A stretch of 64,000 bases of DNA from Magallana gigas (GCF_963853765.1 NC_088861.1:37820001-37884000), one strand, 5' to 3'. Shown: positions 1-59,747, counted from the first letter of the stretch. Program-made: numbers and translations. Notes: generated by a model not told the origin, from the sequence alone.

Positions 1-1471
<1,471 letters not shown>

Positions 1472-1721
1472 CTGAAATTCTGAAATATATATAGAGTGCG
1501 TTATATAAGTTTTAATAATTAATTTTTTTTTTAAAAATACATACATTTTTAAAATAAAACAATAATTGATATGATCCACTGTTCGGTTCTCTTTAAGTTT
1601 TCCAATATATCTAAAATAAAGTTTGTGTACCTCCTCAAAAATAAAAATAAAACCTAACAAACAACAGACTTGCAAGATATTTTCGGGGGTAAGGCAAATG
1701 CATTTCTGATGAACAAAATAC

Positions 1722-1886
1722 CTTCGACTTCAAAATACTTTCAGGAATAGGACTGAAAGATTTACCACTGGCAGATGGGATTAAAGAATTTATAAAACAT
1801 CTGTTTCGGAAGCCTCTACAAACTAAATAAGACCAATTAGAGGTCTTAAAAGCATTTGAAAAAAGAAATGAACGTAAAGTAGCCAT
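1722..1886 (-). CDS. Candidate first exon of HINT2 encoding a mitochondrial transit peptide
   Basis: MATLRSFLFSNAFKTSNWSYLVCRGFRNRCF... is Arg/Ser-rich and acid-poor and ends at AAG|GTATTT. This donor is phase 0 but the next exon needs phase 2, so the junction is unresolved. Confidence 0.4.
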
Positions 1887-2208
1887 CAGAATCAAAGTGA
1901 AAGTAGGTCATACTTTATTGATATAGTATCCCGTGCCCGACAGGAATTTCAAAGGACATAAAGGGGGGGGGGGCTAATATTCGGGTACATATACATGTAT
2001 ATACAATATTGTAAGAAAAATCGTTTCTTGTTAGTGAAGGTGATGGGGGGGGGGGGCACAATCATCAAATAGTCGTAAAATACAAATTCAAATTTAATAT
2101 TTTTTCATGATATAATAGCTAGAAGTTTACAAAAGGACAATTTCTAATTTTATTCAGTTTTAAAAATTTTAACAAATGATAATAAGAAAACATAATTTCT
2201 AAAGTTTT

Positions 2209-2276
2209 GGTGGTATCGAACCCACAATCTAAAAGGCTTAGATCTGCCTGGTGCTCTAACCGCTGAGCTTACAGTC
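2209..2276 (-). repeat. tRNA-derived segment (A and B boxes) inside an interspersed repeat; not a functional tRNA
   Basis: The minus strand reads ...agctcagcggttagagca...ggttcgatacc, resembling A and B boxes. There is no proper acceptor stem. Confidence 0.55.
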
Positions 2277-2282
2277 ACAATT

Positions 2283-2424
2283 NNNNNNNNNNNNNNNNNN
2301 NNNNNNNNNNNNNNNNNNNNNNNNNNNNNNNNNNNNNNNNNNNNNNNNNNNNNNNNNNNNNNNNNNNNNNNNNNNNNNNNNNNNNNNNNNNNNNNNNNNN
2401 NNNNNNNNNNNNNNNNNNNNNNNN
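2283..2424. other. Assembly gap (N run)
   Basis: Run of N. Confidence 1.
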
Positions 2425-3576
2425 ACTTGTATTATTTTTCTTAAAGGTTCAATTGTTGGGATACAAAATCATGTTTTAAAAGTATAGTGGCCCGGGTCAT
2501 CTCTCTACGTTTTTGCTGATTGCCATTAGACCTCATTTAGGCAATGGCAAAAGAAAAAGCATTGAAGTTCTAAAAATGACTCTATTTGGAGGATTTGTTA
2601 CGCAGACGCCAGTTTAAATCAACATATTCCAAGTATTTAACATATTTAAGTAGTACAAATTGATGTTATGTTTGATATTATAATACATTGTTTTGAATGA
2701 TTAAAAAATTTATCAGATTTGTCATTTGACATTTTAATTTTACTCTACATGTACCTTGTCTGTCTTCATATCGGCAATTTACACGCCTTATTCATCCATC
2801 TTCTTTTACGTGCTCCCCAAAAAGTAAAGGCGGGGAGTAACTCTGTGTGATTAATCAATTTTCTATCTGTAAATCTAAATAGGAAAAATGTTTGCTGCGA
2901 GAAAAAGTAGAGGCAGGGGCAGCTGCATGCACCCCCCCCCCTTTTTTATGCTTCGTGCCTGGTCATTATTTCCAAAAAAAAGTTATTTCTTGATTGTTTA
3001 TTTTCTTTTTCATTATTTTTTTTTTTTTGTCTTTTGTTTAATTTTGTCGTTGTTTGTTTTTTAAGACATTATTTATAGGCTAAGTATCGAAACAGATTCA
3101 AGTCCTTCGGGTTTTTTGAAACAGCGGTAATGATAAACAAACGCCGGAGAACTTTTGATTTACACTAAGTCTTACATGTGTAGGATTTAAAACTTAGAAA
3201 ATTTATTTTTAACTTTCTGTAACGTAGTTCTACGCCGCACAGACCCGTGTTAAACAACTTTAGATATTTATTTAAATGCAAGATAAAAAAAAAGAATAAA
3301 AGAAAGCTCGTTGCACCTAGATATGATTGCCGATCATGAGCATACAACTTTAAACTTTTCAATCGATTGATTTTAACCGTAGCTGTATAGTCAATTGATC
3401 TATACAATAAGAACGAAACGAGGGAATTTAAAAACCCTCAACCCGGTAGTAGAAATAAAAAGTTCACTTCTTGCCAAACCATTCGAAGATCGAAGTGAAA
3501 ATTGAGATATACAACTCTATAAAATTCCAGCATTCAATGATTGTGTAAAATTAACAATGATTAAGTAAATAAACGA

Positions 3577-6500
3577 ATGTGCTGCGGGATGGGATTTTTC
3601 CATGTAATATGGACGTTATTTCTACCTTTCCTATTTATATGTGTCTTATTCTCTACAAAATCGGGAACTGGTACGTATGAAATGAAAAAAAAATCTGTGT
3701 ATATAAATGTGTGTTCTGTAAATATATATTTTAATTCTTCATGACCTTCAAATGATTTGTTCATTACACATATACTAAGCCGTCACGTGGAATTTTGTGA
3801 TGTTCCGTAAAAATAAATCACCGTTATATATAATTAAATAAGAATTAAGAAAGGTCGATCTCTTGATAGATTTATATACTTATATCTGTAATTCTTTTAT
3901 CCGAGTAAACAAAGAACCTTCTTATGTGTTTACATCAAAAGATTTTTTTGATACTATAAATACGCATGTGTGTGTGTGCTTTTTTATTTTTTACTCAATA
4001 TGTTCTGAATTTTTCTGAATTTAGTTTTGCTGCAAATTTTGCTTTTATGATAAAAGTCTTTTTATGAATGTAACTGGATTAACCGCTAGTAATGATTCCA
4101 ATCAAAACAAATCATTACGTTTTAAAAGAAGAAAATCTTGCGTAATTATGAAATATATAGCTATTCGTTATTTTTACGACTGTAAAGTGCCAATTTGAGC
4201 AAATCTGGGTCCTCTAAAACCTCTAAAATATGACGACAGATATTCACAAATTATGATAATTTTTTTTTATCAATTCAGAGGGAAATTAAATTGCAAATAA
4301 TTACTTCATACGTAAAAAAATTCAGCTTAATATATTGATTTTAAATTAATGAAAACAGTAAAAACGATATCTATAAATCTTGATCAACAAAAATTTTGCA
4401 AACACCGCCATACATACACAGTTTTTGCGTAATAATAGTGTATTATGGACTTTTCAATATTTTTTGTATTATTATTTATTTTTTATATTTAATGAACATT
4501 GAAGTATTTTTGCATTTCTTTTTTTATTAATGTTCTAAGCAACCAAATCTCCACAAATTAATCACTTCCTGATTGACGGATTATAAATCTAGTTCAAAAT
4601 CCATTTCCTGACAAGGTATAGATTTAATACGTTCTCACCTAATCTGTCAAACCGATCAGCAGGCTATTGTACATAACTCAATTCAGTTTGGTTGCTATAT
4701 TTCATTCAAAGTTTTTTTTTAAAAATTGACTTTTAGATATCATATCAGTTTTTTTAACAAAAGAAAAAGAACGCTGATATAAATGATTAATAATATTTGC
4801 GAATGATTAATACAGAGATGCTACAACCAGAACACAAAAATACCGGTATGGGATTACCCTTTTTAGGAGTTCAGTTCACAAATTGGGTGTTTTTTGTTAT
4901 TTTGATTTTGTTATATATATATTTTTTTTTGGGGGGGGGGGGGGTTGAAAGGATTTTAAAAGGGTTTCTGTCAACTAAATGTACTTTAAACTTTTACAAA
5001 CAATAAACATTTTATGTATCTTTAAAATACATTCAATTTTAAGTAAATTTGTAGTTGAAAAATTTCACTTTCTTTTAGAGAATATATTCAGATTGCAACT
5101 ATAGGACATGTGTAGATAGCTAGTACACAATTTACAACAATAGAATCACATTTACATTTCACCGACCCATTTGTCCCTTTGGTTTACCTTTTAGATTATA
5201 TAATTAATGTTTACACAAGATAAGTCGCATGAAATGATTTAGACTTACACAAATATTTGGTGTTCTAGGTAGTTACAACAGCAGAGTGTCGTTGATGATT
5301 TTTCATTGAAATGTTTTCATTGACAGGCACATTTACATATTTGTTAATAATACTTTGAATATTTAAATGGGAGAACACCAGTCTACTTTTTTTACTAGTT
5401 AACACCCAATCTCCATCAAATTCCTCCGAACTTCAAACTTTATCTCCCCCCCCCCCCCCCCCCCCCGCCAACCCTTCCCCTCCGCGCCCGGTATCTGACC
5501 CCGCGTACAATTATTATTTGTAGTTTATTTAGGGTAAACAATTTTAAGCTAAATTAACCAAAATCATGGAGTTTTTATGAATTAACGGATGTTAAAACAT
5601 TTATACTGTAGATTGATGAGATATGTATAAGAAAATTGCAAGAAAAAGGTTTATTTTAATTCATCATTCATCAATTGTTTGTTTACACAGCATGGTTTTA
5701 TATTGTTCTTTGTCATTGTCTTGTATGAAATTAAATTTTAGAATCAATCCAAAACTCGTACTTAAGACTTAACTCTGTACTGCTTCATTTCAAAGGTATG
5801 TTTTTTATGTCTCTGGTATGACGTAATAGTCTGCATAAATATGAATTTTAAAGGGAGGAAAGGCCTTTAATAGATTGCATTTTATTTACCAGTTTATCTA
5901 TTAATTCATTGATTGATCTGCTGAGTAATTTAAGAAATAGTCCACATAATTGTTGTACAATTTTATTCATTTCTTTCCTTGTAATCGTCATTGTAAAAAA
6001 AAAATACATCTTAACGATGACGCAATGATCCATGGAATCCTCCCTCCATTTCTTTTTACCCATTTGTCTGAAAGTCATGCACTCAACATTACTTGTCATC
6101 GTTTTGATGACAAGCCAAACCATATTTGAACGAACGCATGAGTAGTAAATGCCCGATTTAGCAAACATTCTAATGCGTTTTTGGCAAACAGAATAAAGTG
6201 CGGCGAAAGAAGAAATCGTTGCATATTATGCACACGGTTTGCACATATAAACTCATCTCTCAAGATAACTACTGCATGCAGTTGTGAACTAGCGAAAGAG
6301 GAGTAAAAATCAACTTTCATTTGTAATTTATTGCATGCAATTGTCTCGGATAAGGGGGTATTTTACATCTTGAAATAAAAGTACAGCATATTCCACAGTT
6401 CTGAAATGAATTATATACGGGTTTCTTTGACCATGAAATGCATTCTGAAAATTCTTGTAAAGGAAAGAGGAATAAACCCTTCGCGTTTCTAACTCGTATC

Positions 6501-9500
6501 AAATTAGACATCGAGACTGTGAAAGGAGAAATGTGTTTCTACGTACATGTATCTACTTTAATTTCTAAGTAAATTTTATTATCTTCACGAATTTCTAATT
6601 TTGAACCGTTTATTATCCTGCAGGCATGTTCACGAAGCTATCTTAGGACTATGGTATGTCCTAAGTACATCTTAGGATACGTCTTAGTCTTAAGGATGAC
6701 GTTTACTCAGAATGAAAAAAAATTCCACTGATGATAATGAAAAACCAACTATTGTGTGTTATAAACCTTTTATTGTAGTGTTATTTTTCATTTTCAAAAA
6801 AGTAGGTCAATGACCTACTTTTTGAGTTAATGGCCATTGTATATTTTTGGAAAATTAAAGGAAAATCACTTAAAATTTTACACTATGATTGAGATTTTCT
6901 TAATTGTGAAAATAATACCAATTGCTAAACACTTTTGAAAATGAAATACAATTTATGAATGGCAGTGACACTAAATACATACAAAGCAGTAAGTTTTCCT
7001 TCACAATTTTTATAAATATTCCAGTCCGAATTTCCTCTATCACTTGTAACGTGTCTGCCTAAACACGCTAATAATTATAATGGGTCCCCTCAGATACCTT
7101 GCTGAGGTGTTTGATTTTTATGATAATTGTTTAAGATATATAATAATTTTCCTTATCGCTTGCCTAGCTTTTATTGATTCAAAACTCAATTAATTATAAA
7201 TATTTGAATGTATGGGCCGTAGCCGCACTCTTTGCGTCGTTCCGACACACCCCGTCGCTTCTATCAGTCACTTCAAGCGACCCGTCGCTTATATCGGTCG
7301 CTTCAAACAACCCGTCGCTTCTGTCGGTCACTTCAAAGCAACCCCACGAAGCACCCTCGTAACTGATAACAAATGTCAACTCGCTGAATCTAAGCAACGC
7401 TCACGAAGACAAGTTGCTTCTATACGCCAGTATTATTGTTCTGCAAATCGCTGAGCAATATTGACTTACGAACAATAAGCTTACCTTGAAGTATTCACTT
7501 CAGCGTCTACACTGCGACTGACTGCTGACTCACGGCATCTCGTATTTATACCCTTTGATCACGTGATCTGAGATACTCGGAACAATCAAAGAATCGGGCG
7601 TTTGCGACTTCAGAGTGTCTCTCGGTACTCATCATCCATTTTCATTTACCATTTATGTTACATTACCCACGCCTCCTTCTCAAGCGTCCTCGCTTGAATC
7701 CAGGAATAAAAACAAACAAGCAGTGTGTACAATTTTTCTTATTTACAATGATCGTAGATTATTTTTAACAATATTTTTAAACAAAAAGTTTCCCACAACA
7801 AGAAATGGTTATCTACCATTTTCGAACAACAAACAGAGTGTCTCTACACCATGTTCAGGCTCTTTTTCTTCTCAATCACCTTTACTTTCACTCCATTCTC
7901 CCACTTGGTTGTTACTTTCTTCGTGGAGTGTACATACAAAATTGGCTCTGTTTGCACGGCTACATCCCTTGTAGATGGCTCCAGATTGCTACTTTCGTTA
8001 CGAACTTTTTGATCTCGATTGGTTTCTTCGGATCTGCGACCAGTGAACAAGACAGGTTGAGTTTTCTTCCTCACTATTCTTCCGATTTCTAGTTCATTAT
8101 CTTCATCTTTTGCCATTGACTCTTCCTCTTCATCTGTCCCACTACACGATCCCAATAGAACTTCTTCTAGGTTGCCAGGGTCTTGCGTTTCCCATTCACT
8201 CGGGCTGTCATCCTCTTCTAAACCTGGTGTAGTGAGTGTGGATTCGATCCTTTCTGGGGCTTTCTCTAAAGACTGAGAGGGACTTAACTTCTGCTTTTTC
8301 GCTGGTGGCGTTACTGTAGCTGGTTGAGCGTGTCTCTTCATGTGTTTCAGAAGATAGCTGTTCTTCTTAAAGCGAACTCCACACGTCAGACATTTGTGTT
8401 TTTGGCCTGAGCATAAGATAACATGATCTTGCCAAGGCTCGTTTACTGGCTTGTCACAGAAAGGACATCCTTCCTGTTGCTTCGCTTTAGTTAACTTGGT
8501 ATTAGCCATGGGTTTGGTTCTGAAAGGATACAAAAACCAATTTAATATATTTACTAGTCCGAGACATGAATACTCTTAACTCACAGGCATATAAAACAAC
8601 AATTCAAAATTAATCAAAACCTAACACATAGTCTGACAAATAAGCAGGAGCGCGTCTGTTTCTAACAGATCGTTGCGGTAACTCTTGTTCAGCTTCAATA
8701 TTAATTAAACCCAACTTGTTATCATTTTCATCATCTATCTGATCACCAGATTCTCTTTCATCGAAATTTGACTCTAACTTAGGGACCTCCTCTTCATTAG
8801 TCAAAATCTGAGACTTAACCAACCTCATTCTATCAACATGTATCACTTGAGGAGAACCTTTGCTTCCACACGAAACTTTGTACGTGCATTCCGAGCACTT
8901 TTCGAGGACCAAAAACGGGCCCTGCCAAAAGCTTGTTAGTTTTGGCGATGTACCTAATTTTCTTCGCGGAAAATAAACGTAAACTTTATCTCCGGGGGAA
9001 AATATCTGCCACTTTAACTTTCTGTCGTGGTAACGCTTCTGTCGCAACATTTCTGCTTTTGTGTTTTCTCGTACGATGCGATGAGCTTGCTCCAGTCTCT
9101 CTTGGAGCAACCACGCCCATCGATTTTGTGGAATAGGTTTTCGTTGCACTTCCATTTCGTATACGAGATCTAACGGGGTAGTTGCTTCTCTACCGAGCAT
9201 AAGATAATTTGGACTGAACCCAGTAGTATCGTGAGGTATGGTAGCTGCTTGTCCCAATCGGTGTGATTTTGGTTTACACATGAACTTAGCATGGCCTCCA
9301 GAGTTCTGTTAAACCGTTCCACCATACCATCGGATTGTGGATGGTAAGGTGTAGTATGAGTTTTCTCTACTTGCAAAAGGTTGCATACCTCCTTAAACAG
9401 TTCACTCTCATACTGACGCCCTTGGTCCGAATGGATAGTGTATGGTACCCCCAATCTTACTATAACCTCCTCCACTATTATCTGGGCCACTGTTTTAGCC

Positions 9501-12500
9501 TCCATGTTCGGCATCGCGAAGCATTCGGTCCAACGAGTAAAATAATCGGATACCACGAGAATATACTTATTCCCTGAATCTGTCACGGGCAATTCACCCA
9601 TTATGTCCGTTGCTAACCTATCCATTGGAAACCCACTCTGCACAATCTGCATCGGCGCTCTCTGTCCAGCGAACGAAGGTTTTCTTTTCCCACAAACCTC
9701 GCACCCGTTCACGTATCTTCGAACATCCTTGTTCAGGCCGGGCCAATAAAACTTACTTCGTATCCTAGCTATCGTTTTATTTATCCCCAAGTGACCCGCT
9801 GTTCTTTTGTCATGACAATCCAGCAAGATGCGCCTCCTTTCCGACATAGGTACAACAACTTGTAAATTCTCTAATCCTGTGTCCGTGTCTTTTACTCGTC
9901 TGCAAACCAAATTGTTCTCTATAGTAAGTATATCTAACTGTGACCATAGTGAGCGTAAAAATACGCTTTGACTAGAGATCTCGCGAAACTTTGGCTTCTT
10001 TTCCTTGCCCATCCATTCTTTGACTAATTTAAGCTCTTTGTCATTATCTTGTATTGTCTTTATGTAAGGTTCGTCAAAAGCGAATTCTTTATCATCGGCT
10101 TTTGCCCTTCGAACATGCGGCTCTTTGTCATCATCAATATCATAGCCGCATTGCCTACAGGGTAGACGACTTAAAGCGTCTGCGTTCAGATGTTGCTTTC
10201 CTGGTCTGTGTTGTATTTCCATATCGAAGGTAGACAACACTTCAAGCCACCGAGCTAATTGACCCTCGGGATTCTTGAAAGTAGTCAACCATCTTAATGA
10301 GCTATGATCTGTCCGCAGAATGAATTTCCTCCCATAGAGGTAATGCTTAAAATACTTTGTGAAATACACCACAGCCAGGAGTTCTTTCCTTGTCACGCAA
10401 TATTGCCTTTCCGACTTTGATAGAACTTTGCTAGCATAAGCAATTACCCTCTCTTTACCTTCATGAACCTGTGATAACACAGCCCCCATTGCAAAATTAC
10501 TTGCGTCGGTGTCCAATATAAACGACTTGTTAAAGTCGGGATGTGCAAGTACTGGGGCGCTTATCAGGGCGGTTTTCAATTGATCGAAGGCAGTTTGACA
10601 ATCTGTACTCCATGTAAAAGAATCAGTGTTGTTCTTCTCTGTCAATTTGTGTAAGGGTTTTGCAATACCGGCAAAGTTTTTAACAAACTTCCTGTAATAT
10701 CCGCATATGCCCAAGAATGAGCGAAGTTCGCTGACATTGGCTGGTGCTTTCATTGTTTTGATTACCTCTACTTTCTTGCTGTCTGTAGTTATTCCTTTGT
10801 CGGATATGACATGCCCAAGATATTCTACAGACCTAGAGAACAAAGAACACTTCTTCGCTTTCAATTTTAGTCCAGCGCCAGCCAACCGACCAAACACTTT
10901 TGAAAGATTCTCTACCATCTCTTCGAATGTTTTGCTGATGACCATAATATCATCTAAGTAAATCAAACAAATTTCCCAGTTCAACCCGGCAAGTACGGTT
11001 TCCATAAGCCTCTCGAATGTTGCTCCAGCATTGCAGAGACCAAACGGCATTACCCGAAATTGAAATAAACCTTTTCTTGTCGCGAAGGCTGTTTTCGGCT
11101 TATCCTCAGGCTCCATTTCTACTTGCCAGTAGCCCATGCACAAATCGAGAGTTGAAAACCATGACGCACCGCTCAGACTATCGAGCATGTCATCAATGCG
11201 CGGCAGAGGGTACGCATCTTTTAACGTTGCCGAATTTAAACGCCGGTAATCTACACAGAAGCGTGTAGAACCATCTTTCTTCTTGACAAGAACAACCCCA
11301 GAGGCCCAGGGACTCGAAGACGGCTCTATGACATTTCGCCGTAGCATATCGTCTACTAATTTATCTGCCTCTTCCCTCATGTGGACTGGGAGTCGCCTTG
11401 GTGGTTGCTTTATAGGACGAGCATCTCCAGTGTCAATTTTATGTTTGACTACGTTTGTTCTCCCGAGATCGTTATCTGAACTAGCAAACAAAAAGGCATA
11501 GTTCTCAATAAGCTTATCCACTGACTTTCTTTGCTCTTGATTCAACCTGTATTTCGTGACTTCACTCAGAGTTTCAAGTTCCCTTGACCAAGTCATTTGG
11601 TGGTCGGTCGCTTTTGTAGTCTCTAACACTTTTTCGACTGGACAAAGTTGTCCAATGTTAGTCCCTTTATAAATAGTTTGAGGATCTTGTGAAAGATTCA
11701 TAAACCGAACAGGTACTCTAGTTTCACTGTTTACTAAAGTCCTCCCCACCAGACTTCTATTAGTCGTAATCAAACAGTCCTTTGGCTCTACGATCCCCAA
11801 ACCACTGCAAAGGTTTACCCCATCTGGCACGCACACATCACAAGTTGTGATGATTTCACTTCTAGCTGGAACAACGAACGATTCTGAAGCAACAACTCTG
11901 TAACACCCTAGCGTACCTTCAAGCAACAACGAGTGTTTCTCTCTGCCGATGCTTAATACCTTCTTAGGTATATCTAACGAACATTTATGTTCAGTCATGA
12001 AATCTAAGCCAATGATTCCATCCACAGTAATGTCTGATATTACTATTTGTGAAAGATATTCCCTATCACCCAATTGAATATTGGTCACAATCTTTCCTAA
12101 CACCCTCAAAGATCTGCCTTCAGCGGTCATAATATCTTGCTTTACTTTGTCTATAGCAAAGGTGCCATTTGATTGTTGAACTCTGTCGTAGGCTCTTTCC
12201 GAAAGCAAGGTAACAGTCGCTCCTGTATCTACCAACATTTTTATCTCAGTTCCGCCTATGCAGACAACGGCATACATTCCGGCCTCACTCGGTCTATTAA
12301 ATGCCACTGAAGGTTGCTTAACTTCTTCCTCTGGTCTAGTTTTTGCTGCACTAACTGATGCAGGACGTGGCGCTTTAGGACCATAGTTGCTTTCTACTGG
12401 ACGTTTTCTATTCTTTTGCTTTGATGGACATTGTCTGCTTATGTGTCCTTCTTCATGGCAATTGTAACATTTTATTGTTTTCGGCAAGTGTCTTTGCTTA

Positions 12501-15500
12501 CTGCCATTTTGGGCTGATCTCCTTGAATCATCAGGCTTTCTCATTTCTCGTATTTCCGACTTAAGCTCATTCAAAGAGCTTTGTAAGCCTTTTAGACACT
12601 TCGTCAATTCATCGGTGTTGTCGGCATCATCATTTCTGGAGGAGTCACCATTAGCCATACGCAAGTGTGACTTCTGTTCTATTCTTCTGAAATCTGACTG
12701 TATGAAAGCCTCTAACTCTACTGCAAGCCTTATTGCATCGTTTAGACTCTGTGGTCTGGCCTGTTTGATTCTAAGGCGCATATCCGCATCCACCAAAGCA
12801 TCAATGAATTGTTCCTTTGCGAGCGTTTCCCTCACGTCATTCGGTGCCGTTGGATAAGCTAAATGTGCCAATCTCCTTATTGTCTGGCCCAATTCTGGGA
12901 GCGTCTCTGTTGCTTTCTGTATACGTTCTCTCAATTGAACTCTATATAGCTCTGTTTGATTTGCAGGTGCAAAGCGATCCTCTAAAGCCCTTACGAGTTC
13001 ATTGTAGTTTCTACCTAATTCGCCAGCAAGGTTGCCTAACACTCCCTGGGCGTTTCCTCTTAAGGACACTGCTAAGTAGAGACCTTTTTCCCTGTCTGTC
13101 CATCCATTCAAGGCTGCACACGCTTCAAAATGCGATTTGTAATCTAGCCACGAAGCGCTGCCATCAAATGTCGCTGGCTTTATATAGTTGGATGGCTTCT
13201 TAAAAGAAGTATCGGGGTTTTTATATCCTCCCTCATCTTTTTCTGTGGGCGCTTCAAGCGGCCGTTGTCGCCTGACAGTAATTCGCGGTTCATTTTCCCT
13301 TACTTCTATTCGATTCTTTTCACGGAACCTCGGCGATGCCGTAAAACTGAGATCCTCTTGATATTCAGGGTCATACATTTGGTTATATTCTCTTCTTTTG
13401 AATCTGATTTCTGTTGGACCTTCAGACATAATTCCAGAGTCGCTTTTCCGAACAGTTTGATGTGCTGGAGTCGAGGTCTGCTGTTTCATATCTTCTCTAA
13501 GTTTCATCGAGTGTTCAAACGTCGTCCTGTTAAGCTCCTCAAGCTCCGCTTCAATTCTCTGTATTTCCTCGGTAATATTATCCAATGCCATTCTTACAAT
13601 AAAAACACGAGATTATTATTTAAAAACTTTAATGTACAAAAATCATACAATCAAACGTGGTCCCAACGTGGGCGCCAAATTTTGTAACGTGTCTGCCTAA
13701 ACACGCTAATAATTATAATGGGTCCCCTCAGATACCTTGCTGAGGTGTTTGATTTTTATGATAATTGTTTAAGATATATAATAATTTTCCTTATCGCTTG
13801 CCTAGCTTTTATTGATTCAAAACTCAATTAATTATAAATATTTGAATGTATGGGCCGTAGCCGCACTCTTTGCGTCGTTCCGACACACCCCGTCGCTTCT
13901 ATCAGTCACTTCAAGCGACCCGTCGCTTATATCGGTCGCTTCAAACAACCCGTCGCTTCTGTCGGTCACTTCAAAGCAACCCCACGAAGCACCCTCGTAA
14001 CTGATAACAAATGTCAACTCGCTGAATCTAAGCAACGCTCACGAAGACAAGTTGCTTCTATACGCCAGTATTATTGTTCTGCAAATCGCTGAGCAATATT
14101 GACTTACGAACAATAAGCTTACCTTGAAGTATTCACTTCAGCGTCTACACTGCGACTGACTGCTGACTCACGGCATCTCGTATTTATACCCTTTGATCAC
14201 GTGATCTGAGATACTCGGAACAATCAAAGAATCGGGCGTTTGCGACTTCAGAGTGTCTCTCGGTACTCATCATCCATTTTCATTTACCATTTATGTTACA
14301 CACTTTTCAAATTCCTACCCATTTTTGATCCAATTTTACAAAAAATTGAATGATGATAATACAAAAACATTTATAGTATTAAACTACTTATATTGATCTT
14401 ATACTGTTGGCATATAATTTACATGAGGTCAATGATCAAAATTTTGAGATATGGTGTCTTTTCTTGTTTTTAAGCATAATTCAATATTTTTTAAATTCAT
14501 GCCATACGGTTATTATAATGAAAGTTAAAACTACCAGAAAATATGCAAAATTATATAGACTAAAATATAAAATATTAACTTTTAATATTAGAGTACTTCC
14601 AAAAATGTTTAAGCAGAAAACAAAATCTGCAAAATTTAGTCCGAATTTCCTCTGTTTGGCTAAAAGTCTTTTTTTGTTTTGGCATAATTCCATAATGTAG
14701 TAGAAATATCGAATGTTATGTCAATAATAATTCATTTCACGGATACTTTTTGTGTTTAGAACAAATTTTACTCATGACATTGAACTTTATAACAATCCGA
14801 ATTCGAGAACTCAAACCCTGAGTAAACAACACCCTTAAGTCTGTTTCTCGAAGCTCTCCTAAATTTAGGAAACGTCATAACTTTGTCCTAACTTTAGGAC
14901 ATCTCTTACCTTGTCCTAAGACCATCCTTAGGCTGTATAATAACGTTTTGGGGGATATCGGGGTTGTTGTGAAGCTTTTTCCTAAGACTGATAGAATAAA
15001 GCAATATTTTCTACAGTTCCAGCATTTCCAACAAACATCTAATTCCTAATCCTGGAGGAGGGAGGTGGGGGGGGGGGGCGGGGGGGGGGGCGCATGGTCA
15101 TTAATTTTATCATGTACGTTCATTTTATCAATAAAAATTGGAGAGGGACCCTGTTTTTTGGTTGTTGATATTTTTAACTATTTATATGTTGTTTTTGTTC
15201 ACTAAAATACATTTAAGTAAATGTAAATTTTTTAAAATGTATACGTTAAAATTACTAGTTTTAGGCCTATTGTGTTACATGTAACTACCGCCACGTTTTC
15301 TCTGGCAACATGTTTGATGATTTATCCCTGCACAAGTCTCTCAAATTCGATTTTTATGAATAAATGTCAAAAATAAGAATGGCTGTAGAAGGTTAGGACA
15401 TACTAACTTAAGATGTTCCTAAGTTACCGTCGAGCTACATCTTAAGACGTGTCCTAAGTTGATCTTAGGATGTTCCTAACTTTTTCCTAAGTCATATCTT

Positions 15501-18500: not shown

Positions 18501-21500
18501 CTATAACAAAAGAAAAGAACGATATAAGTGTCAAATCTAGAACTTTTATAACCAATGAAAAAAATTTAGAATGCGTACAATTTCTCCGACAAATGTCTTT
18601 AAAATAGGTGTCAGGATTACTTTTCTCATGATTTGATAGAGAATGTCAGAAAATTGTTTCATTTTCTGGCATAATTTCATTAAAGCCGAAAGGTATGGCG
18701 TCACAATGGTTCCAAAACAATATTGAGAGCGACAGCTGATCTTTTTTTTTCGTCGAAGTTTATATCTTCAACGATTGATATGAATCTTGTGTTTCAGCTT
18801 CCTTGATATCGGACATTTGCACATCTTCAACAAAAACAGGAAATGAATTATATGTATGGAATGATGGGTATCCAGACACTAGTGGCGACTGCGCAACTTC
18901 CTCCGGATGTGCCTGTTCCGTTTCTGCTACCAAAGGTTCAACTATCCAGGTGGACCTCTTAGATCTCCGTTTGTATGAAGATGGCGTCGGCACGTGTTAC
19001 CAGCGGCTAGTAATATCTGAAGGAGGAGTGGACACATCCATTGATTGTGATAAAAAGAACGAATTCGCTTTGACGCCCATCTACACGAGCCAGTCAGATT
19101 CTTTCGACATTCGATTTGACAACACACATTCAGGACAAAGTGGAAACTTTTGGATAGCATTGCGAGGTAATATATATTTACAATGTACATGTGTACATGT
19201 ATTAACTATGTCTAGTCATTTCCCAAAATTTAACAAAAATTTTGCAAATTAGTATTTCCCTTAACGCTATTAAAGAGCAGAGCAGGTAATTAGTATATCT
19301 GTTTAAACTGTTTTAACAGATAAAGAAATCATACTTGATTGTGATCATAGCATGCAAATCATAAGATTTGAATATGTTGCGTTACCAACCGAGTTTATTT
19401 AAACAATAAAATGCCTTCTTTGGTGAATTAGTTGGGATATGAAGGTACTGACATTGCAAATAAAATAAATAACACGCGTTAGCGGGTTATGTAAATTTTT
19501 TCTGCAATGATCGCTACCTTCATTTCCCGAATGAATCACCAAAGAAGGCATTTTATTGTTAATATTAAATCTTTCTTTTAACTAATAATGAATTGATTAT
19601 GAAAAGTAAGAACAATTCACTAAATTACTGTTAATGTACATAAGTATGTAAGCTAAATGAAACAGCCAAATCGGCTCCTGTGAGACTTTGAGTCTGACAT
19701 CATCATGATTATTTCGTGCAGTTCGTGAGTTTTCTAAGGTCGCTGTAGGTTTCGACCAATCGATAAACAGGGCGTGCAAATTTCAGTCCTGTCACTTTCT
19801 TGTCAGTTTAAGCCGTTGTAGATTTTGACCAATCGATAAACGAGGCGTGTAGATTTCATATAAAACTATGAATTAACTATAATTTTCCGTAAGAAATAGA
19901 GGGAATATACTTGGTAGATGTAAATATATTCCTATAAACTTTTAAACTCTCCTATTTTTTTTCTTAATATTTATCATAATAAGTGTATATGTTTTATGTT
20001 TGAATACCGAAATGTCCCACACTCTTTTCAGCGATAGACAGTACTGCAACTCTGACCTTGACCTGTGGGAATTCCTCCGCCGTGTATTCCTGTGGGGAAT
20101 CCCTTCCAACTACACCAGCACCAACCATCGTGACGTCACCATCAAATAGTTCTTCCACTTCAACAAATAGTTCCTCATCTTCATCAAATAGTTCTACTAC
20201 GTCATCTTCTACCTTGGTTGTCTTAACGACAGATTTGACGTCATCAGTTACGGCGTCATTGTCTGCTGCTGCAAGCCAGTCCAAAGCTGATGGTATTTTT
20301 TTTTCAGTAGAAAATATTTATTGCTTCTGATAGCACAATCATGACTCAAAAGTAAACAGAAACATGGATTCTGAGGAAATTGCTTACAGTTTTTATTATA
20401 GATATTTTTTAGCTCAAACATCCTGTTTTACTACTTGTATGTGGACATTGAGTGCAACAAAGATGGAATAAGCATTGCTTCTAACGTTATGCCATCAAGA
20501 TATAATTTAATTTTTCCAAAATAAAAAAAATAAAACATGAATGTAGATCAGGAACTTTAGGACATTACGAAGTAACTCATCCAACCTGGTATTTTTGCAT
20601 CCATAAAATCAATTAAAAACATGTATAAAGCATGATTGGATGATGAAAATATAGATATTACAAGCATAAAATCAACTACATGTACTTTAAAAGTGGCTAT
20701 TTACGCGGTCTTTGTTTCTAACATCATGAGTTCGGATATTTTGATGTTTTAATTCAAAATTTCTACATATTGTAGTGAGCCAATATGTCAATTCTGATTT
20801 ATTTTAAATAATAGTAACCAAGAACGCTGACTTTTTCCCCTATCCCATATCCATATAAATATGAATACATGTAATCTATTTAGTATATATCTTACGCCAA
20901 ATAATAATTTATATTTATATATGGCTTTTATCAGACCTATACTGGAATATGGTGATGTTGTGTGGGGCAACTGTACCAAAACAAACTCCGAATTGCTTGA
21001 AAAAGTACAAATTGAAGCAGCCAGAATAATAACAGGGTTGAGAGTTAACTCATCTAGAAGTATCTTATATAGCGAACTTGGCTGGGAAACCCTTCAATCT
21101 CGAAGTTATAAACATAAGCTTATTCTTTTCTACAAAATCATTCATGGTTTAGCACCGCAGTACTTGTTAGACTTAATTCAACCATACTTTCCAACTGAAC
21201 ATGCATATATAATCTTAGGTCTAATGGCAATTTTTACTCTCTGCCACTATGTCGGACTACTTCTTATTACAATAGCTTTATTCCATCTACAATTAAATTA
21301 TGGAATAATCTTGATGCAGAAATAAAACATTCATCATCTTTGTCTATTTTTAAGTCAAAACTCAAAAACCAAAATATATCCAAAACTTGCAAACACTACA
21401 GCTTTGGCAATAGGAAAGAAAATATTATTTTATGTCAATTACGGAATAAAGCTAGCAATTTAAATGTTCATTTATTTAAGGATTTTTTAATTGCTGATAG

Positions 21501-23900
21501 TCGATGTACAAACTGTGGGTCTGAATCTGAAGGTAATATACATTTTTTTCTTGGGTGTCCAAGATACACTCAACAAAGAGTTAAACTTTTTAATCAATTT
21601 AATGACATTAGTGTCCATTTTCATATTAACAATATTCTTTATGGTAGTTCTTACTTTTCATACAACTTAAATTGTAAAATTGTTTCTTATATTCATAGTT
21701 ATATTATAGCTTCTAAGCGTTTTTGATTTTTTTTTCAAGCGGGCTGGATCATGACACCAATATTCTATGTATGTCTGTCGGTATGAATAAATGAGGTGAT
21801 GGGTTTATAAATGTAGGAATGAATGTGTTCATGTATATGCTAAACAACAAGTTAATTTATCATCATATGACAAAAGTCAAGCTTATTGTTTATTATCCAA
21901 TTATCCTTTGTCTTGTATACAAATATATCAATAATATACCACTCTGTAAACTGGTAAATTATACTCTATACTATATACTATGATTTTTTATAACACCACT
22001 TCTTGACTTTGTATTTTGGAGAGGGTTTATATATAGGCTTTGCCCGTTGCCTAATCCATTTGATTACTCAATAAGATATGTTTAAATTAAAGAAGATAAT
22101 AATTTTATTTTGAATAACTCCTCTTACTGAATGGGCATTTTAACATTCGGTAACAAATTATATACATGTACAAATCTGTAAAACAACCTTAATTAAAAGG
22201 TTAATTGGTTCCGAAACATGCATTTTACTCAGAGAAACAATGCGTTGGTATGAAACCTACACCAAAATGATATACATGTACGTACATGTAAATTAGATTG
22301 ATATCCACATATTTTTATCAATAGAGAAACCAAATTCTTGCTATTTGCAGCTTCTTTTTTGCTAACTAACATAAAGAAAATTGACACAAATAATCAGCTG
22401 TAATTGTTGGAAAATTCTGTGTTTTGTTTCAAAAAATAAAATGGCTAAAATGAAAATAGTAATCACGATTCAATATCAAGTTTGATTGGTCAAATATTAT
22501 CATATTATCAATATAAATGGTAAACAATAAATTTTGCATATAAAACCAATAAATATTTAATCGTTAAACGCTCCGCATACACGCATACATTTAAATGTAC
22601 ATATTGAAGAAAAATGTTTCCCCGACAGTTCAGTGGTATATTTGAGTATTATCTTGTTTGTTTTAATGCATTTGCTCAATACAACAAAACTTAATATTTT
22701 TCAAATTAAATTTACAAGAAGCGAAATTAAATGGTTAAAAAAAAAGTGATTACAGTAAATAAAAAGATGTTGATTACGCTCTCAAAAGGAGTTTTTGTTA
22801 GTTTTCCCTTCATTAAAGTCTTCTGCTGTTTCATTTTCTATTCCTCGAACAATTCTCAAACATCACTCAATCAATCGGATTTTCCAATCAATCAATCATT
22901 CAGCTGATTTTTATTTGTAGACATATCTACCTACTAACTCGATTTCTGACTTTCAAATCATAGTTGCATTGTAAATTTAGGCATTAAGAATGCCCAAGTA
23001 AACCACTAAAAATGGAAAGAAATCGAGAGATGTAAGATTAATTTGTGACCATGCCCCTTTAATTAATAAATTATCTATCGGATAGTTATCTTTTTCATTA
23101 ATTAACAAAATATATGAATACCTTTTTTTTTTTAAAAAAATCTAGAATAAACTAAAGTTTTTTTGTTTTTTTTCAAAAGATGTTGGCTCTTCTTAAGTAT
23201 TTACACCGACAATACTGTTGCATTTTTTCCAGATATACTTCATTGTGATCCTTACCTATTTTGTGTTTATGCATGACATTGTGTATATGCAAGTAATTAT
23301 AACAAATATCTCATTAACCAGTGGTCTTGTTTTGAGAGTATGGTAATATTCTGGTATTTTATTAACAGAATCCGACAAGACCGCACTGATCGCCGGAACA
23401 GCCGGGGGAGCCCTGCTCCTCGCATTGCTGTCTCTGCTTGCTGGCTTTCTACGATACAGATTCCGGAAGGTAAGATTATATTTAATACTGTATATGTCTT
23501 TATTAAAATTTAGCACTATCCTTTTGATCTGACAATGATTAATAACGCATGTTCATATCGGCAAATATTGAGCATAGATAAAATAATCAATAGAGTTCTA
23601 AAAATGGTATTAGAATCAATAGATAAATTAACTTCCGGTGTGCCTTTTTAGAACATGTACTCGCATTAACATGAAGTCAGATACATTTATATCAAACAAC
23701 ACTGATTCTAAAAAAATATTATCTGTGTCTACCAGAATATAATCTAGTAACGTAAAAACGCTGATATTGATTTCAGGGATGTTTTTTTTTTCTTTTGCTA
23801 GAATAAAGTCAGTGCCGAAGATGAGTACACCAGCCATTTTGGAACCTTGAGCGACGCCAACAACGTCGCTCCTATTGGATACAGACAACTGACTGAGTGA
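3577..23900 (+). CDS. Type I membrane protein, 434 aa: signal peptide, SUEL/Gal-lectin-like domain, CUB-like domain, Ser/Thr stalk, TM helix, short Tyr-motif tail; exons 3577-3670, 16578-16958, 18798-19166, 20032-20292, 23369-23469, 23802-23900
   Basis: All six exons have GT-AG junctions with compatible phases (1,1,1,1,0), total 1305 nt. Signal peptide MCCGMGFFHVIWTLFLPFLFICVLFSTKSGT; 10-Cys domain; 6-Cys CUB-like domain; TM ALIAGTAGGALLLALLSLLAGFL followed by RYRFRK; tail ends IGYRQLTE*. TATAAAA at 3518-3524. Domain names are motif-based. Confidence 0.8.
7045..7662 (-). repeat. 3' LTR of Gypsy element 1
   Basis: Direct repeat of 13683-14300; TG...CA ends; minus-strand AATAAA at 7175-7170. 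Confidence 0.97.
7844..8509 (-). CDS. Accessory ORF of element 1: zinc-finger protein (C2HC + C2H2, NLS-like motif, acidic region), 221 aa from the ATG at 8509
   Basis: CPFC...HVILC and CLTCGVRFKKNSYLLKHMKRH; PPAKKQK; Glu/Asp-rich middle. It lies between the pol stop and the PPT and is preceded by a pyrimidine-tract acceptor tcctttcag| at 8520. Confidence 0.8.
   Translation of the reverse strand: MANTKLTKAKQQEGCPFCDKPVNEPWQDHVILCSGQKHKCLTCGVRFKKNSYLLKHMKRHAQPATVTPPAKKQKLSPSQSLEKAPERIESTLTTPGLEEDDSPSEWETQDPGNLEEVLLGSCSGTDEEEESMAKDEDNELEIGRIVRKKTQPVLFTGRRSEETNRDQKVRNESSNLEPSTRDVAVQTEPILYVHSTKKVTTKWENGVKVKVIEKKKSLNMV
8610..9236 (-). pseudogene. Out-of-frame integrase C-terminus of element 1
   Basis: PHDTTGFSPNYLMLGRE...WQGPFLV (GPY/F module) continues the integrase in a different frame. 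Confidence 0.9.
9170..13591 (-). CDS. Gag-Pol polyprotein, 1473 aa, frameshifted near the end of the integrase core
   Basis: CCHC knuckle CYNCHEEGHISRQC, protease LVDTGA, RT YLDD, RNase H LDTDAS...TDH, integrase HHCC (HDKRTAGH...CEVC) and D,D(35)E core (ATD...SDQG...VERFN). The frame breaks after WDKQLPYL. Confidence 0.95.
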   Translation of the reverse strand: MALDNITEEIQRIEAELEELNRTTFEHSMKLREDMKQQTSTPAHQTVRKSDSGIMSEGPTEIRFKRREYNQMYDPEYQEDLSFTASPRFREKNRIEVRENEPRITVRRQRPLEAPTEKDEGGYKNPDTSFKKPSNYIKPATFDGSASWLDYKSHFEACAALNGWTDREKGLYLAVSLRGNAQGVLGNLAGELGRNYNELVRALEDRFAPANQTELYRVQLRERIQKATETLPELGQTIRRLAHLAYPTAPNDVRETLAKEQFIDALVDADMRLRIKQARPQSLNDAIRLAVELEAFIQSDFRRIEQKSHLRMANGDSSRNDDADNTDELTKCLKGLQSSLNELKSEIREMRKPDDSRRSAQNGSKQRHLPKTIKCYNCHEEGHISRQCPSKQKNRKRPVESNYGPKAPRPASVSAAKTRPEEEVKQPSVAFNRPSEAGMYAVVCIGGTEIKMLVDTGATVTLLSERAYDRVQQSNGTFAIDKVKQDIMTAEGRSLRVLGKIVTNIQLGDREYLSQIVISDITVDGIIGLDFMTEHKCSLDIPKKVLSIGREKHSLLLEGTLGCYRVVASESFVVPARSEIITTCDVCVPDGVNLCSGLGIVEPKDCLITTNRSLVGRTLVNSETRVPVRFMNLSQDPQTIYKGTNIGQLCPVEKVLETTKATDHQMTWSRELETLSEVTKYRLNQEQRKSVDKLIENYAFLFASSDNDLGRTNVVKHKIDTGDARPIKQPPRRLPVHMREEADKLVDDMLRRNVIEPSSSPWASGVVLVKKKDGSTRFCVDYRRLNSATLKDAYPLPRIDDMLDSLSGASWFSTLDLCMGYWQVEMEPEDKPKTAFATRKGLFQFRVMPFGLCNAGATFERLMETVLAGLNWEICLIYLDDIMVISKTFEEMVENLSKVFGRLAGAGLKLKAKKCSLFSRSVEYLGHVISDKGITTDSKKVEVIKTMKAPANVSELRSFLGICGYYRKFVKNFAGIAKPLHKLTEKNNTDSFTWSTDCQTAFDQLKTALISAPVLAHPDFNKSFILDTDASNFAMGAVLSQVHEGKERVIAYASKVLSKSERQYCVTRKELLAVVYFTKYFKHYLYGRKFILRTDHSSLRWLTTFKNPEGQLARWLEVLSTFDMEIQHRPGKQHLNADALSRLPCRQCGYDIDDDKEPHVRRAKADDKEFAFDEPYIKTIQDNDKELKLVKEWMGKEKKPKFREISSQSVFLRSLWSQLDILTIENNLVCRRVKDTDTGLENLQVVVPMSERRRILLDCHDKRTAGHLGINKTIARIRSKFYWPGLNKDVRRYVNGCEVCGKRKPSFAGQRAPMQIVQSGFPMDRLATDIMGELPVTDSGNKYILVVSDYFTRWTECFAMPNMEAKTVAQIIVEEVIVRLGVPYTIHSDQGRQYESELFKEVCNLLQVEKTHTTPYHPQSDGMVERFNRTLEAMLSSCVNQNHTDWDKQLPYLTILLGSVQIILCSVEKQLPR
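13683..14300 (-). repeat. 5' LTR of Gypsy element 1
   Basis: Direct repeat of 7045-7662, followed on the minus strand by the PBS and the gag ATG at 13591. Confidence 0.97.
14107..14188 (-). promoter_or_regulatory. LTR core promoter (TATA + Inr) and two consensus 5' splice donors
   Basis: TATAAA at 14188-14183; TCAGTC Inr with its A at 14157, 31 nt from the TATA start; AAG|GTAAGC at 14122 and C|GTAAGT at 14107. Confidence 0.65.
16135..16297. mobile_element. Short MITE with tgcgcggatc-type TIRs and poly-G/C tracts
   Basis: tgcgcggatctaga versus the reverse complement of tctggattcgcgca, 12/14 match. Confidence 0.6.
18094..18300. mobile_element. MITE, copy 2 of the tactgtatacaggg family (inverted relative to copy 1)
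   Basis: Same TIRs and internal ttcgccc/gggcgaa motifs as 737-950. Confidence 0.8.
19402..19880. repeat. Interspersed repeat with a ~159-bp imperfect hairpin (19402-19560) and a duplicated gaccaatcgataaac motif
   Basis: aacaataaaatgccttctttggtga... pairs with ...tcaccaaagaaggcattttattgtt. Family not assigned. Confidence 0.6.
20880..22090 (+). mobile_element. 5'-truncated, frameshifted non-LTR retrotransposon (CR1/L2-like ORF2 C-terminus) in an intron of the receptor gene
   Basis: FIRPILEYGDVVWGNC...LEKVQIEAARIITG...ELGWETL...LFYKIIHGLAPQYL, then a C-terminal C-x2-CG-x3-E-x3-HFFLGCPRY zinc motif in another frame. Ends are approximate. Confidence 0.85.
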
Positions 23901-25256: not shown

Positions 25257-27544
25257 TCAGACGGTGTCGCTATGGCTTCGACTTATTCTTTTCTTGAACC
25301 CTTTCTTGAAAGTAAACAGCTTAGATTTTGTCTTATCATTAGCCACCACGGCGGCCTGAGAACAATGTTTCACAAACTCCCGCTTCAACTGAATAACGAG
25401 TTCATCCATGGCTTCCGAAACACCGCTATATCCATCCGCCACTGAGACGTCGAACTTCGGACAGTTTAATTGCTCCGCCAAAGTAGTCCCTTCACTGTCA
25501 CTGACTTTCCTCACAGATAACAGGTCACATTTGTTCGCTATCACCACAGCTGGGATCTCCTGACCCCTTTGTTTGACCAGCATGTCTTTTAGAGTGTACG
25601 CGTACTCATAACTTGACTTGTCTGTGATGGAGTAGATGAACACGAACCCGTCGCCCCATTTGATGTGGTTCTCCTTGTGTTCTGTGCTGTCCTAAAACAC
25701 AAAACACCATACTATAAATACTTATTTTAAAGAAAGTATAGGATTTTATGAAGTAATACAATATAAAGCTTGATAATTTATATCAGATGCATGTGGAAAG
25801 AGAGCTTGGGAACTACATCTAAAGGGATTAACAAATTATTAATATACCAAAATCATTTTCAAAATGATTTTTGTGCATACGTATGATGTTCTAATTTAAA
25901 TATTAACTTATAATAGAGCAAATGTTGAGACTGCACCCATCATGCGCATTAGATATCAATAAACAAAATCCATCTGAAATACATAAACGTTTATTTTATA
26001 TGCATGTTTCTGTTTCAGATTGTATTTACTCAAATCAAGAAAGAAACCTAATAAACACGACAAACTTTATTGCATTCATGTTTCTCTCTGTATACAGTTC
26101 TAAGTATGTTTCAAAACTTATGTGAACCATCAATTGTTAACAGCTGTTCACTTATCCATTTGATGTCGATTGAATCTTTACGTCCTTTTTATGCTATGAA
26201 TAGCATTAAATGCCTTGGGATATTGCAATGTTTATTTCTTTATCTTCTCTGCAAAAAAGAATTCATTGCCTATAAATTGCCGGTTTCCTCAACATTGTGT
26301 ATTTCTTTTGGGATGTTATATGCTATACACTTACATTGGCTGCCGTGTCGATGATTTCCAGAGTGACGTCATCACGTGGCGATGGTATTTTGTGATTATA
26401 GAGCATCTCTGTTAAAAATAGAACAAAATCTACATTACAATCAGTTATCTATCAGGATGAAAATACACACGTGTCAAAACAAACTGGCATGTATGACTTG
26501 AAACGAAATGTAAGATGAAATTTGTATATATCTCGCAGACGTTTGATGAATTGGAATGTCAAACGTATAGAATTTCTCATTTCTTTTCGACGTTTTCGAT
26601 GTTTTGCGGGATAAAACTCAAAGAGAAACCAGCGAGATACTATCAGTGAGTGTTAGTATCAGTGACTGGTCTGAAGATAACACAAATAGGTTAAATATGA
26701 CAAATCTAAAATTGTTCAACAAATAGGTAAACAGGACCTTTAAGTTATGTCAAATCTATATATAGATTTGGAAAAGTCCTCATATTTTAAACACTAGGAG
26801 AGCATTTTAAACGAATACAATTTTAAGAACTTTAATAAGATTGTTGAACAAACATGCTCCTTCATTTTGAAGTAAAATAATAATTAATAAAACTGTCAAT
26901 GATTAAAATTGATATGTCGAATTTTACTGTATCTAGTTAAATGTTGGTAGTTTAAATTGCTGGAACGTTCCAGAAAAAACCTAAATACGTTTTTTTTATG
27001 TGATGAAATATTTAAACCGGAGACAGCCTGTAGGTAAATCACGTGGATTCACAATGAAATAGAGTGAATAAAGTAAAATATTAATGTTGCCAATATCATA
27101 AAACACACATAAGCAAGACGTTATATATTTATCTCATATCATTTACATTTTCCAGTGTCTATGTGATAAAATTGCTGAAAATTATATAACTACGTAACAA
27201 GGAATCATTCTTTGAGTATTATGAGGTAATCAAATACGGCCGTGGGCGTGCTCAAAATTATCATAAAGCCATTCCTTAAATAAAAAATTGTATATACTAT
27301 CCAGTGATGCATATTATTAGATAAGGGATATATATATTTCATTATGAAAAATATACATTTTAAATATAACGTCAAAAGCGTAATATGGTCACCCTCTTCT
27401 GTGAAAAAAAATGAACATGAGAATAGCTGTTTATTCCCCCCACTTGATGAATTTCAAGCTATATTACACAAATATAAATTTTCAAAATTTATTCTATTAT
27501 CATAAACAAATCAAACACTGCTGTTACATTTTTTTTCTTCACAA

Positions 27545-40300: not shown

Positions 40301-40518
40301 TTTACTATGATCCCACAAAATACACATTGGACCTTATCATCTTGACCATCTCCAATGTAATGAAATCCATTTTGTGCTAGATCTTCTTTGCTTTTTACTG
40401 CATTTTTGGGATAATTCTTGAACGTATTCAATCTCTTTTTGATGTCCACTTGGAGGGGCTTGAATCGCTCTAGAGGGGATGTGGGAATGATGTCATAGTT
40501 TGATCTATCTGCTTCCAT
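37343..40518 (-). CDS. Inhibitor of apoptosis (IAP) with two BIR domains and no RING, about 205 aa; coding exons 40518(40602)-40023 and 37464-37343
   Basis: BIR1 RLNTF...GFHYIG...VQCVFC...W...DD...EHRRFSRDC. BIR2 RLNSF..W...AKAGLFYTG|KNDTTQCWYC...WEPGDEPKQEHDSNFPDC, then KLAAH*. Phase-1 GT-AG intron. The start codon may lie in an upstream exon. Confidence 0.88.
37821..37987. mobile_element. 167-bp MITE, TIR cagggttgtctctaa, 6-bp TSD ATGGTT (hAT-like)
   Basis: 15-bp perfect TIR; atggtt at 37815-37820 and 37988-37993. Confidence 0.8.
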
Positions 40519-59315: not shown

Positions 59316-59683
59316 CTACGGTTTTTCGCAAATGTAAAAGTGAGATCCTCCCCTTTCCTTGCCGTGGGCCCATGGAACACAATTATCATCCATCCAAAAT
59401 AGAGTGGTACCCTCAAACTTCATAACGAGGCAGTTTGTGGTCTCGTTTTTAGTTGGATATCCTGACGCCCATTTTGTGTAGGGACCGAGAGCGGTGCCTG
59501 TCTCTAACCATCGCCACTGACCCTCGAACACATTGTCCTCTGCCCCAACCCAAAAGCCTGACTCCCTAAACTCTGTAAATGACACGAACTGTTGATATAG
59601 ATCTATAAATTGCGAAGGATTGCCTTCGTCAATGGTATTCATAATCAAAAGTACAAAAGAAAGATTTACGACATTCACATCAT

Positions 59684-59747
<64 letters not shown>

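Follow-up and report, generated by a model that had tools for sequence, protein, structure and literature searches.

Structure and state of the Gypsy element

The window analysed here is a 64,000-nucleotide stretch of the Magallana gigas genome (GCF_963853765.1, NC_088861.1:37820001-37884000). On its minus strand, from 14300 to 7045, it contains a Ty3/Gypsy element with LTRs of 618 bp each, which show 0 mismatches, and a 4-bp target duplication. The element is young, and its LTRs (TG...CA), primer-binding site (PBS), polypurine tract (PPT), and target-site duplication are those of the Ty3/Gypsy class. The Pfam matches follow the Gypsy order, with Gag preceding protease (PR), reverse transcriptase (RT), RNase H, and integrase, and the best match of the RT among solved structures is Ty3 (E = 5e-42). 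An additional open reading frame, hereafter ORF3, lies behind integrase. The features of the element are the following, L001 being a related metagenome locus described below:

13683..14300, minus strand: 5' LTR, 618 bp, TG...CA, identical to the 3' LTR
14198..14203, minus strand: E-box CACGTG, 15 nt before the TATA box, with equal spacing in the L001 LTR
14183..14188, minus strand: TATA box
14117..14125, minus strand: predicted splice donor AAG/GTAAGC, the sole such site besides its 3' LTR copy
13889..13982 and again 7251-7344, no strand assigned: 30-bp repeat in the LTR, 3.1 copies, candidate binding site
13660..13677, minus strand: PBS, presumably tRNA-Lys-like
8610..13591, minus strand: gag-pol (Gag, zinc knuckle, PR, RT, RNase H, integrase; Pfam)
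8520..8537, minus strand: predicted splice acceptor, pyrimidine run plus CAG, 10 nt before the ORF3 ATG
7844..8509, minus strand: ORF3, 221 aa, intact, between the integrase stop and the PPT
7663..7690, minus strand: PPT region
7045..7662, minus strand: 3' LTR

The integrase stop codon occupies 8612-8610 and ORF3 starts 100 nt further on. In this copy the pol frame is broken near 9233. No chromo family appears among the Pfam matches of the integrase tail or of ORF3. An RT tree restricted to the sequences of this analysis places the window element far from the group with integrase-fused ORF3 (see below), with six of its eight inner branches unresolved.

Elsewhere in the window, a second young LTR element (46086-50773, plus strand) has identical 142-bp direct repeats and an intact gag-pol-like frame of 1381 codons (46256-50401). 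Judged by eye it is Steamer/Mag-like; it has no match to the ORF3 profile, and its C-terminal tail carries R-S-G-R-x-x-K-P, which resembles the basic motif of ORF3. It is adjoined by a BIR-repeat (IAP-like) coding exon (40015-40644, minus strand) and its diverged second copy about 5.2 kb away (45478-45682). This exon was recognized by eye, as were a Ras-family small GTPase-like exon (25257-25691, minus strand) and a non-LTR, CR1/L2-like element with a decayed 3' end (20831-21726, plus strand). A C-type lectin-like exon (59316-59852, minus strand) lies beside a GA microsatellite.

ORF3 and its family in bivalves

The initial annotation described an intact 221-aa ORF between pol and the PPT with C2HC and C2H2 fingers and an acidic middle, and the residues bear this out. 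Within ORF3 we distinguish, all on the minus strand:

8480..8509, minus strand: histone H3-tail-like N-terminus, codons 1-10 (Ala1, Thr3, Lys4, Thr6, and Lys9 after Met removal)
8411..8467, minus strand: finger 1, CCHC (C15-C18-H29-C33)
8330..8392, minus strand: finger 2, C2H2 (C40-C43-H56-H60), with the usual Phe and Leu core
8288..8308, minus strand: basic patch PPAKKQK, residues 68-74, candidate nuclear localization signal, conserved in the oyster subfamily only
8174..8194, minus strand: acidic W-x-x-Q-D-P-G motif, D110 and P111 nearly invariant in the family alignment
8054..8083, minus strand: basic G-R-x-x-R-K-x-T-x-P motif, R147 and K148 invariant in 31 aligned sequences
7946..7969, minus strand: LC8-type motif RDVAVQTE
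7853..7936, minus strand: predicted C-terminal beta-hairpin, residues 192-219, pLDDT 82-92 (AlphaFold2)

Finger 2 fits the C-x2-C-x12-H-x3-H pattern with a hydrophobic core and is modeled with a helix at residues 50-61 (pLDDT about 90), while its match to Pfam zf-C2H2 (E = 7e-4, 20.3 bits) is below the curated cut-off of 25.2. With a family profile, DNA-binding C2H2 proteins are matched by both fingers in tandem, with E-values down to 1e-21. The acidic middle comprises 18 Asp or Glu within residues 98-140. The AlphaFold2 model built from 31 sequences (mean pLDDT 68.5, pTM 0.30) combines well-scored fingers (80-92) and a C-terminal beta-hairpin (82-92) with a disordered middle; Foldseek (best E 0.05) and VIA-align (best Z 3.4) matched it at the fingers only, with the hairpin compared as part of the whole model. 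An env identity, already rejected in the initial annotation, is ruled out by a maximum 19-residue hydropathy of 0.33, without signal peptide or transmembrane segment; none of the 27 family clusters defined below exceeds 1.6.

Two short motifs pointed out earlier fare differently. The PPAKKQK patch is present at 8308-8288 and K72 and K74 are kept in at least 90% of 15 oyster relatives, but only one of 27 distant clusters has such a patch at the same place. RDVAVQTE, found at 7969-7946 as described, has a VQT anchor, Asp at -4, and Glu at +2, with a local pLDDT of about 54 (AlphaFold2). The preferences of the dynein light chain LC8 given in PMC6607443 are an xQT anchor, a disordered region, an H-bonding residue at -4, and D/E/P at +2. 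The putative LC8 site fits them, so that the suggested LC8 binding stands at motif level; a loose LC8-type motif occurs in 16 of the 27 clusters.

The closest named relatives of ORF3 come from Crassostrea angulata and Magallana gigas (86-87% identity). A word search returned 15 relatives, 39-90% identical, 14 of them with alignments that cover about half the protein or more, and those with names are all from oysters. Searched against 1.84 billion representatives, the profile gave 435 matches; the best 150 are mostly multi-finger proteins aligned at the fingers only and include about two dozen proteins of 190-350 aa that match lengthwise at 20-30% identity. These distant relatives span oysters, scallops, and one mussel, the named family members (30 proteins looked up by cluster) belonging to Saccostrea, Ostrea edulis, Magallana, Argopecten irradians, Ylistrum balloti, and Mytilus edulis. 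Ostrea has six named 217-aa copies, labeled 'REST-like', on at least five chromosome-scale contigs, and Argopecten has seven named copies. Conservation is concentrated in the N-terminus, the zinc ligands (seven or eight), the W-x-x-Q-D-P-G and G-R-x-x-R-K-x-T-x-P motifs, and, in many members, xQT. Three homologs (P0219, P0220, and P0150) possess an extra zinc-finger pair at the end, and P0220 carries four LC8-type motifs where most ORF3 proteins have one. Because the Cys/His ligands and a number of short motifs are still in place among relatives only 20-30% identical, ORF3 is, judging from its conservation, not a chance ORF; its relatives likewise mark it as an old family and not a recent capture. 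Horizontal transfer among bivalves could have contributed to the host range. Viral contigs yielded no relative (0 of 31 candidates with alignment A1, 0 of 3 with integrase), a profile search with alignment A2 of near-length proteins was dominated by multi-finger proteins and gave no further distant member, and the ESM Atlas returned generic C2H2 clusters only.

Direct linkage to pol is provided by L001 and by eight polyproteins, most stand-alone members being known as protein only. In L001, whose integrase is 64% identical to that of the window element, the frame of pol continues past integrase directly into an ORF3 homolog (profile E = 4e-23), which is tail-less and has a different C-terminal domain. 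The L001 LTR measures 1311 bp, and gag, pol, and ORF3 form one frame of 1740 codons (483-5705). The L001 region matched 13 long proteins: eight are Gypsy polyproteins ending in an ORF3 homolog (E = 1e-20 to 1e-36), one (P0224) keeps the C-terminal ORF3 part only, and four end after the integrase tail; this search returned long proteins only, and the frequency of fusion is not readable from 8 of 13. The ORF3-fused elements are 63-67% identical to the window element in RT-RNase H and mostly 24-32% in ORF3. L001 is one of five loci from a metagenome scan, of which L002 ends right after integrase and the distant L003-L005 (29-34%) have no ORF3 profile match. Indirect evidence of a tie to Gypsy comes from stand-alone members: the cluster of P0036 also includes Gypsy Gag proteins, and the gene model P0004 is a pol piece joined to ORF3. 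The cluster of P0218 includes Gypsy Gag/protease pieces in the metagenome-assembled genome of the bacterial symbiont Candidatus Thiodiazotropha endolucinida, probably host clam DNA in the bin.

The fused architecture could mean that ORF3 tethers integrase to chromatin, covalently in the fused forms and in trans in the window element, as chromodomains do in chromoviruses. Such targeting is favored by L001 and by 8 of the 13 long matches, where ORF3 is in frame with the end of integrase; we nevertheless consider it improbable, as the fused forms retain their own Met and an acceptor-like site, and a stop plus a 100-nt spacer separates the two frames in the window.

Sequence comparison supports ORF3 as a conserved non-env accessory gene tied to the Gypsy pol of a bivalve lineage. 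All five listed ORF3 differences between the window and a contig from run X7 are third-position synonymous, for an expected fraction of 0.21-0.34 (p = 0.0004-0.005); this contig has nine differences over 7667-8650, eight of them shown, three of these outside ORF3. The corresponding count for pol is 9 synonymous among 16 listed differences. This supports purifying selection on ORF3, from a small sample of five differences and one other copy. An inert captured host zinc-finger fragment is thus a scarcely credible reading, and a largely refuted one, even if an ORF3-less variant exists and some members are labeled as host REST-like genes: the frames are intact, the ligands are invariant at 20-30% identity across elements whose RT is 35% different, and the REST-like entries occur in many near-identical copies, as expected of a transposon. 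A capture unique to the window copy is excluded by the 20-30% identical relatives behind Gypsy integrase.

The claim of a conserved, element-encoded accessory gene therefore holds as regards linkage and selection and is qualified by a variant without the ORF, an observation of a kind that the initial annotation had in part named as refuting. In this variant, seen in one X7 contig and one X21 read (2 of 4 runs), position 8603 is joined to about 7850, and acceptor and ORF are gone. It retains the last ORF3 codons, from which we infer a deletion and not the ancestral state. Its contig in run X7 has a depth of 62.7 against 30.5 for the ORF3-bearing one, although expression is poorly measured by contig depth. 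Copies without ORF3 may obtain the protein in trans, or the gene may be dispensable over short periods; ORF3-less and tail-less variants count against necessity.

Predicted splicing of ORF3

The predicted LTR donor is located 66 nt after the TATA box, and the exon before it has no ATG. The predicted acceptor (14 pyrimidines of 18) is tied best of the element. L001 has a comparable layout, its LTR containing an E-box 15 nt before the TATA box and one donor 77 nt after it, with an acceptor-like site just before the ORF3 Met. The fused forms, in frame with pol, still keep an internal Met behind an acceptor-like context: upstream of the ORF3 Met, 18 of 18 extensions fit a pattern of pyrimidine run plus YAG-compatible end, drawn up after inspection of the data, versus 31 of 264 other Pol Met contexts. 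The LTR donor and the acceptor before the ATG, which both DNA loci have, predict a spliced ORF3 mRNA. No read across the LTR-to-ORF3 junction was found in the four runs, which have low depth (46 and 124 raw reads placed). The sense-strand depth in run X24 is 1.2-9.5 over the ORF3 bins, 0-0.4 in the three bins directly upstream, and up to 5 in gag.

With a single strong donor after the TATA box in both LTRs, the gag-pol RNA would be intron-retaining. ORF3 made from spliced RNA might then act like Rev or CERV, binding the unspliced genomic RNA and enabling its nuclear exit despite the strong LTR donor. CERV, encoded by the Gypsy element Cer1, does so and is itself made from a spliced mRNA (PMC10309623), and the invariant R-K of the basic motif would suit RNA binding of this kind. 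We nonetheless regard RNA export as unlikely: it leaves the H3-register tail unexplained, no leucine-rich export signal stands out by eye in the family alignment, and CERV has a different architecture (517 aa, H/M/G domains, exons common with gag).

An H3-like N-terminus and its possible role

The most conserved non-finger feature of the ORF3 family is its N-terminus. The initial annotation missed it, together with the donor/acceptor pair and the integrase-fused forms, and all three open other mechanisms. Membership of the family was decided on the fingers and the motifs after them, without regard to the N-terminus, which gave 108 of 308 collected proteins, in 27 clusters at 45% linkage. Counted after the start Met, Thr3 is found in 22, Lys4 in 25, Thr6 in 22, Arg8 in 17, and Lys9 in 16 of the 27 clusters, or 102 matches in 135 (five positions by 27 clusters). 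These residues and positions are those of H3T3, H3K4, H3T6, H3R8, and H3K9, position names found in the literature. At least four of the five are matched in 20 clusters, a result reached by 4 of 15,120 arrangements of the columns. The first residue after Met is A, V, P, T, or S in all 27 clusters, and these residues are permissive for removal of the initiator Met. The profile that retrieved most clusters contained the N-terminus; as a control for ascertainment, six fused clusters were retrieved with the motif-less L001 query, and five of them match at least four positions. The likeness to H3 was noticed post hoc and rests on position counts in 27 clusters that are homologous, not independent. 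Excluded by the filter were some members that depart from the motif (P0223 and P0114) and also fragments that fit it (P0079 and P0091, for example). L001/P0155 and P0223 have no tail, and in P0221/P0222 it lies internally.

The match to H3 is incomplete: Arg2, required by many H3 readers, is present in none of the 27 clusters, position 7 is Pro in 15, and 12 have a CDK-type S/T-P-x-K/R site. A CDK site or a basic arm could therefore be behind part of the pattern, and ORF3 might be a plain zinc-finger transactivator with its fingers on the LTR, an activating acidic middle, and a CDK-regulated basic arm that happens to resemble H3. The CDK-type sites, the missing Arg2, and the acidic middle agree with this. 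Thr3, Lys4, Thr6, and the fixed distance to Met are, however, better conserved than Pro7, and the ORF3 of the window lacks Pro7 yet keeps Thr3, Lys4, Thr6, and Lys9, which makes a plain transactivator a very doubtful explanation.

An H3-like N-terminus joined to C2H2 fingers is also the layout of the SNAG factors SNAI1, GFI1, and INSM1, whose N-termini mimic H3 and bind LSD1 (PMC5066116). By analogy, ORF3 could be a self-repressor, its hook recruiting LSD1/CoREST-type repressors to the LTR and limiting copy number; the twofold depth of the ORF3-less X7 contig would go in the same direction, with the reservation on depth made above. This is highly unlikely, as the LSD1-binding SNAG residues P2, R3, S4, and F5 (SNAI1 numbering; PMC5066116) are not conserved in ORF3, where position 2 is Arg in 0 of 27 clusters and position 4 is Lys in 25. 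ORF3 follows H3 (Thr3, Lys4, Thr6, Arg8, Lys9) and not the SNAG P-R-S-F, has its fingers directly after the tail, unlike SNAG factors, and belongs to a transposable element whereas these are host genes.

We tentatively favor, as possible rather than probable, that ORF3 is a nuclear H3-tail mimic brought by its two fingers to the chromatin of its own element, where it would favor transcription. Observation provides the ORF, its place behind integrase, its conservation, and the N-terminal pattern; on these, five steps can be envisaged. Splicing from the LTR donor to the acceptor would give ORF3 its own start, removal of the initiator Met would expose a free H3-like N-terminus, and the fingers would bind the LTR or element chromatin. 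The tail might then engage readers or writers of H3K4/K9, either attracting activators as a hook or diverting silencers as a decoy, and LC8 bound to the xQT motif might render the protein multivalent. The acidic W/D/P motif recalls the DWP motif through which the Epstein-Barr virus protein BKRF4 binds H2A-H2B (PMC12937675), a likeness that we note as a lead only.

Whether or not the H3 reading holds, the ORF3 genes form a deep and apparently undescribed accessory family of bivalve Gypsy elements, in which the gene may stand apart from integrase or be fused to it, lack its tail, or be deleted. There are precedents for accessory ORFs of LTR elements, for histone mimics, and for anti-silencing proteins in transposons, taken one by one. 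What we propose, with due reserve, is that a widespread bivalve Gypsy lineage carries its own spliced, zinc-finger-tethered copy of the H3 tail, which would hijack or soak up the H3K4/K9 machinery at the provirus. If true, it would be the first histone-mimic counter-silencing protein of an animal retrotransposon that we are aware of. Our literature search, with supplements, Repbase reports (which, like the others, may annotate such ORFs), and subscription journals outside its range, retrieved no paper on this ORF3 family and no retrotransposon histone mimic; the words 'ORF' and 'zinc' have 0 occurrences in the main text of PMC6238403 and PMC9679248. Many ORF3 copies sit in bivalve gene sets as 'REST-like' or uncharacterized proteins and contaminate the annotation as host transcription factors. 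Little is settled about the means by which animal retrotransposons escape silencing by chromatin, VANC of plants being the best-documented suppressor of silencing encoded by a transposon (PMC6719617). Peptide and reporter assays could address the matter, given that the conserved H3-like tail is short and sits on a zinc-finger protein of 221 aa.

Several known systems share traits with ORF3. The earlier statement that standard Gypsy elements encode only Gag and Pol, and some also Env, overlooks both CERV of Cer1 (PMC10309623) and the additional ORFs of plant elements. Like ORF3, CERV from Caenorhabditis elegans is a non-env accessory protein of an animal Gypsy element; it is nuclear and translated from a spliced mRNA. 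By description, it differs in the architecture given above and in exporting RNA, ORF3 lying after pol and having classical fingers and an H3-like tail. The additional 3' ORFs of LTR retrotransposons (PMC8220671) are, as ORF3, sense ORFs between pol and the 3' LTR, and chromoviruses have a chromatin-related module at or behind the integrase C-terminus (PMC8220671); ORF3 has no chromodomain and would imitate a histone tail where chromoviruses read one. ASCIZ/ATMIN (PMC5963919) shares with ORF3 its zinc fingers and the location of LC8 motifs in disordered sequence, but is a host gene with many LC8 sites, against mostly one in ORF3. VANC of Arabidopsis VANDAL (PMC6719617) is likewise a family-specific regulator encoded by a transposon, and works via tandem motifs in its own element; it belongs to a plant DNA transposon and its anti-silencing activity is demonstrated, whereas for ORF3 such activity is proposed. 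NS1 of influenza A H3N2 (PMC12937675) is also a parasite protein with an H3-tail-like stretch, which engages the H3K4-reading machinery. In NS1 the mimic lies at the C-terminus and DNA-binding fingers are absent, whereas the H3-like stretch of ORF3 is at the true N-terminus and is conserved across a deep lineage.
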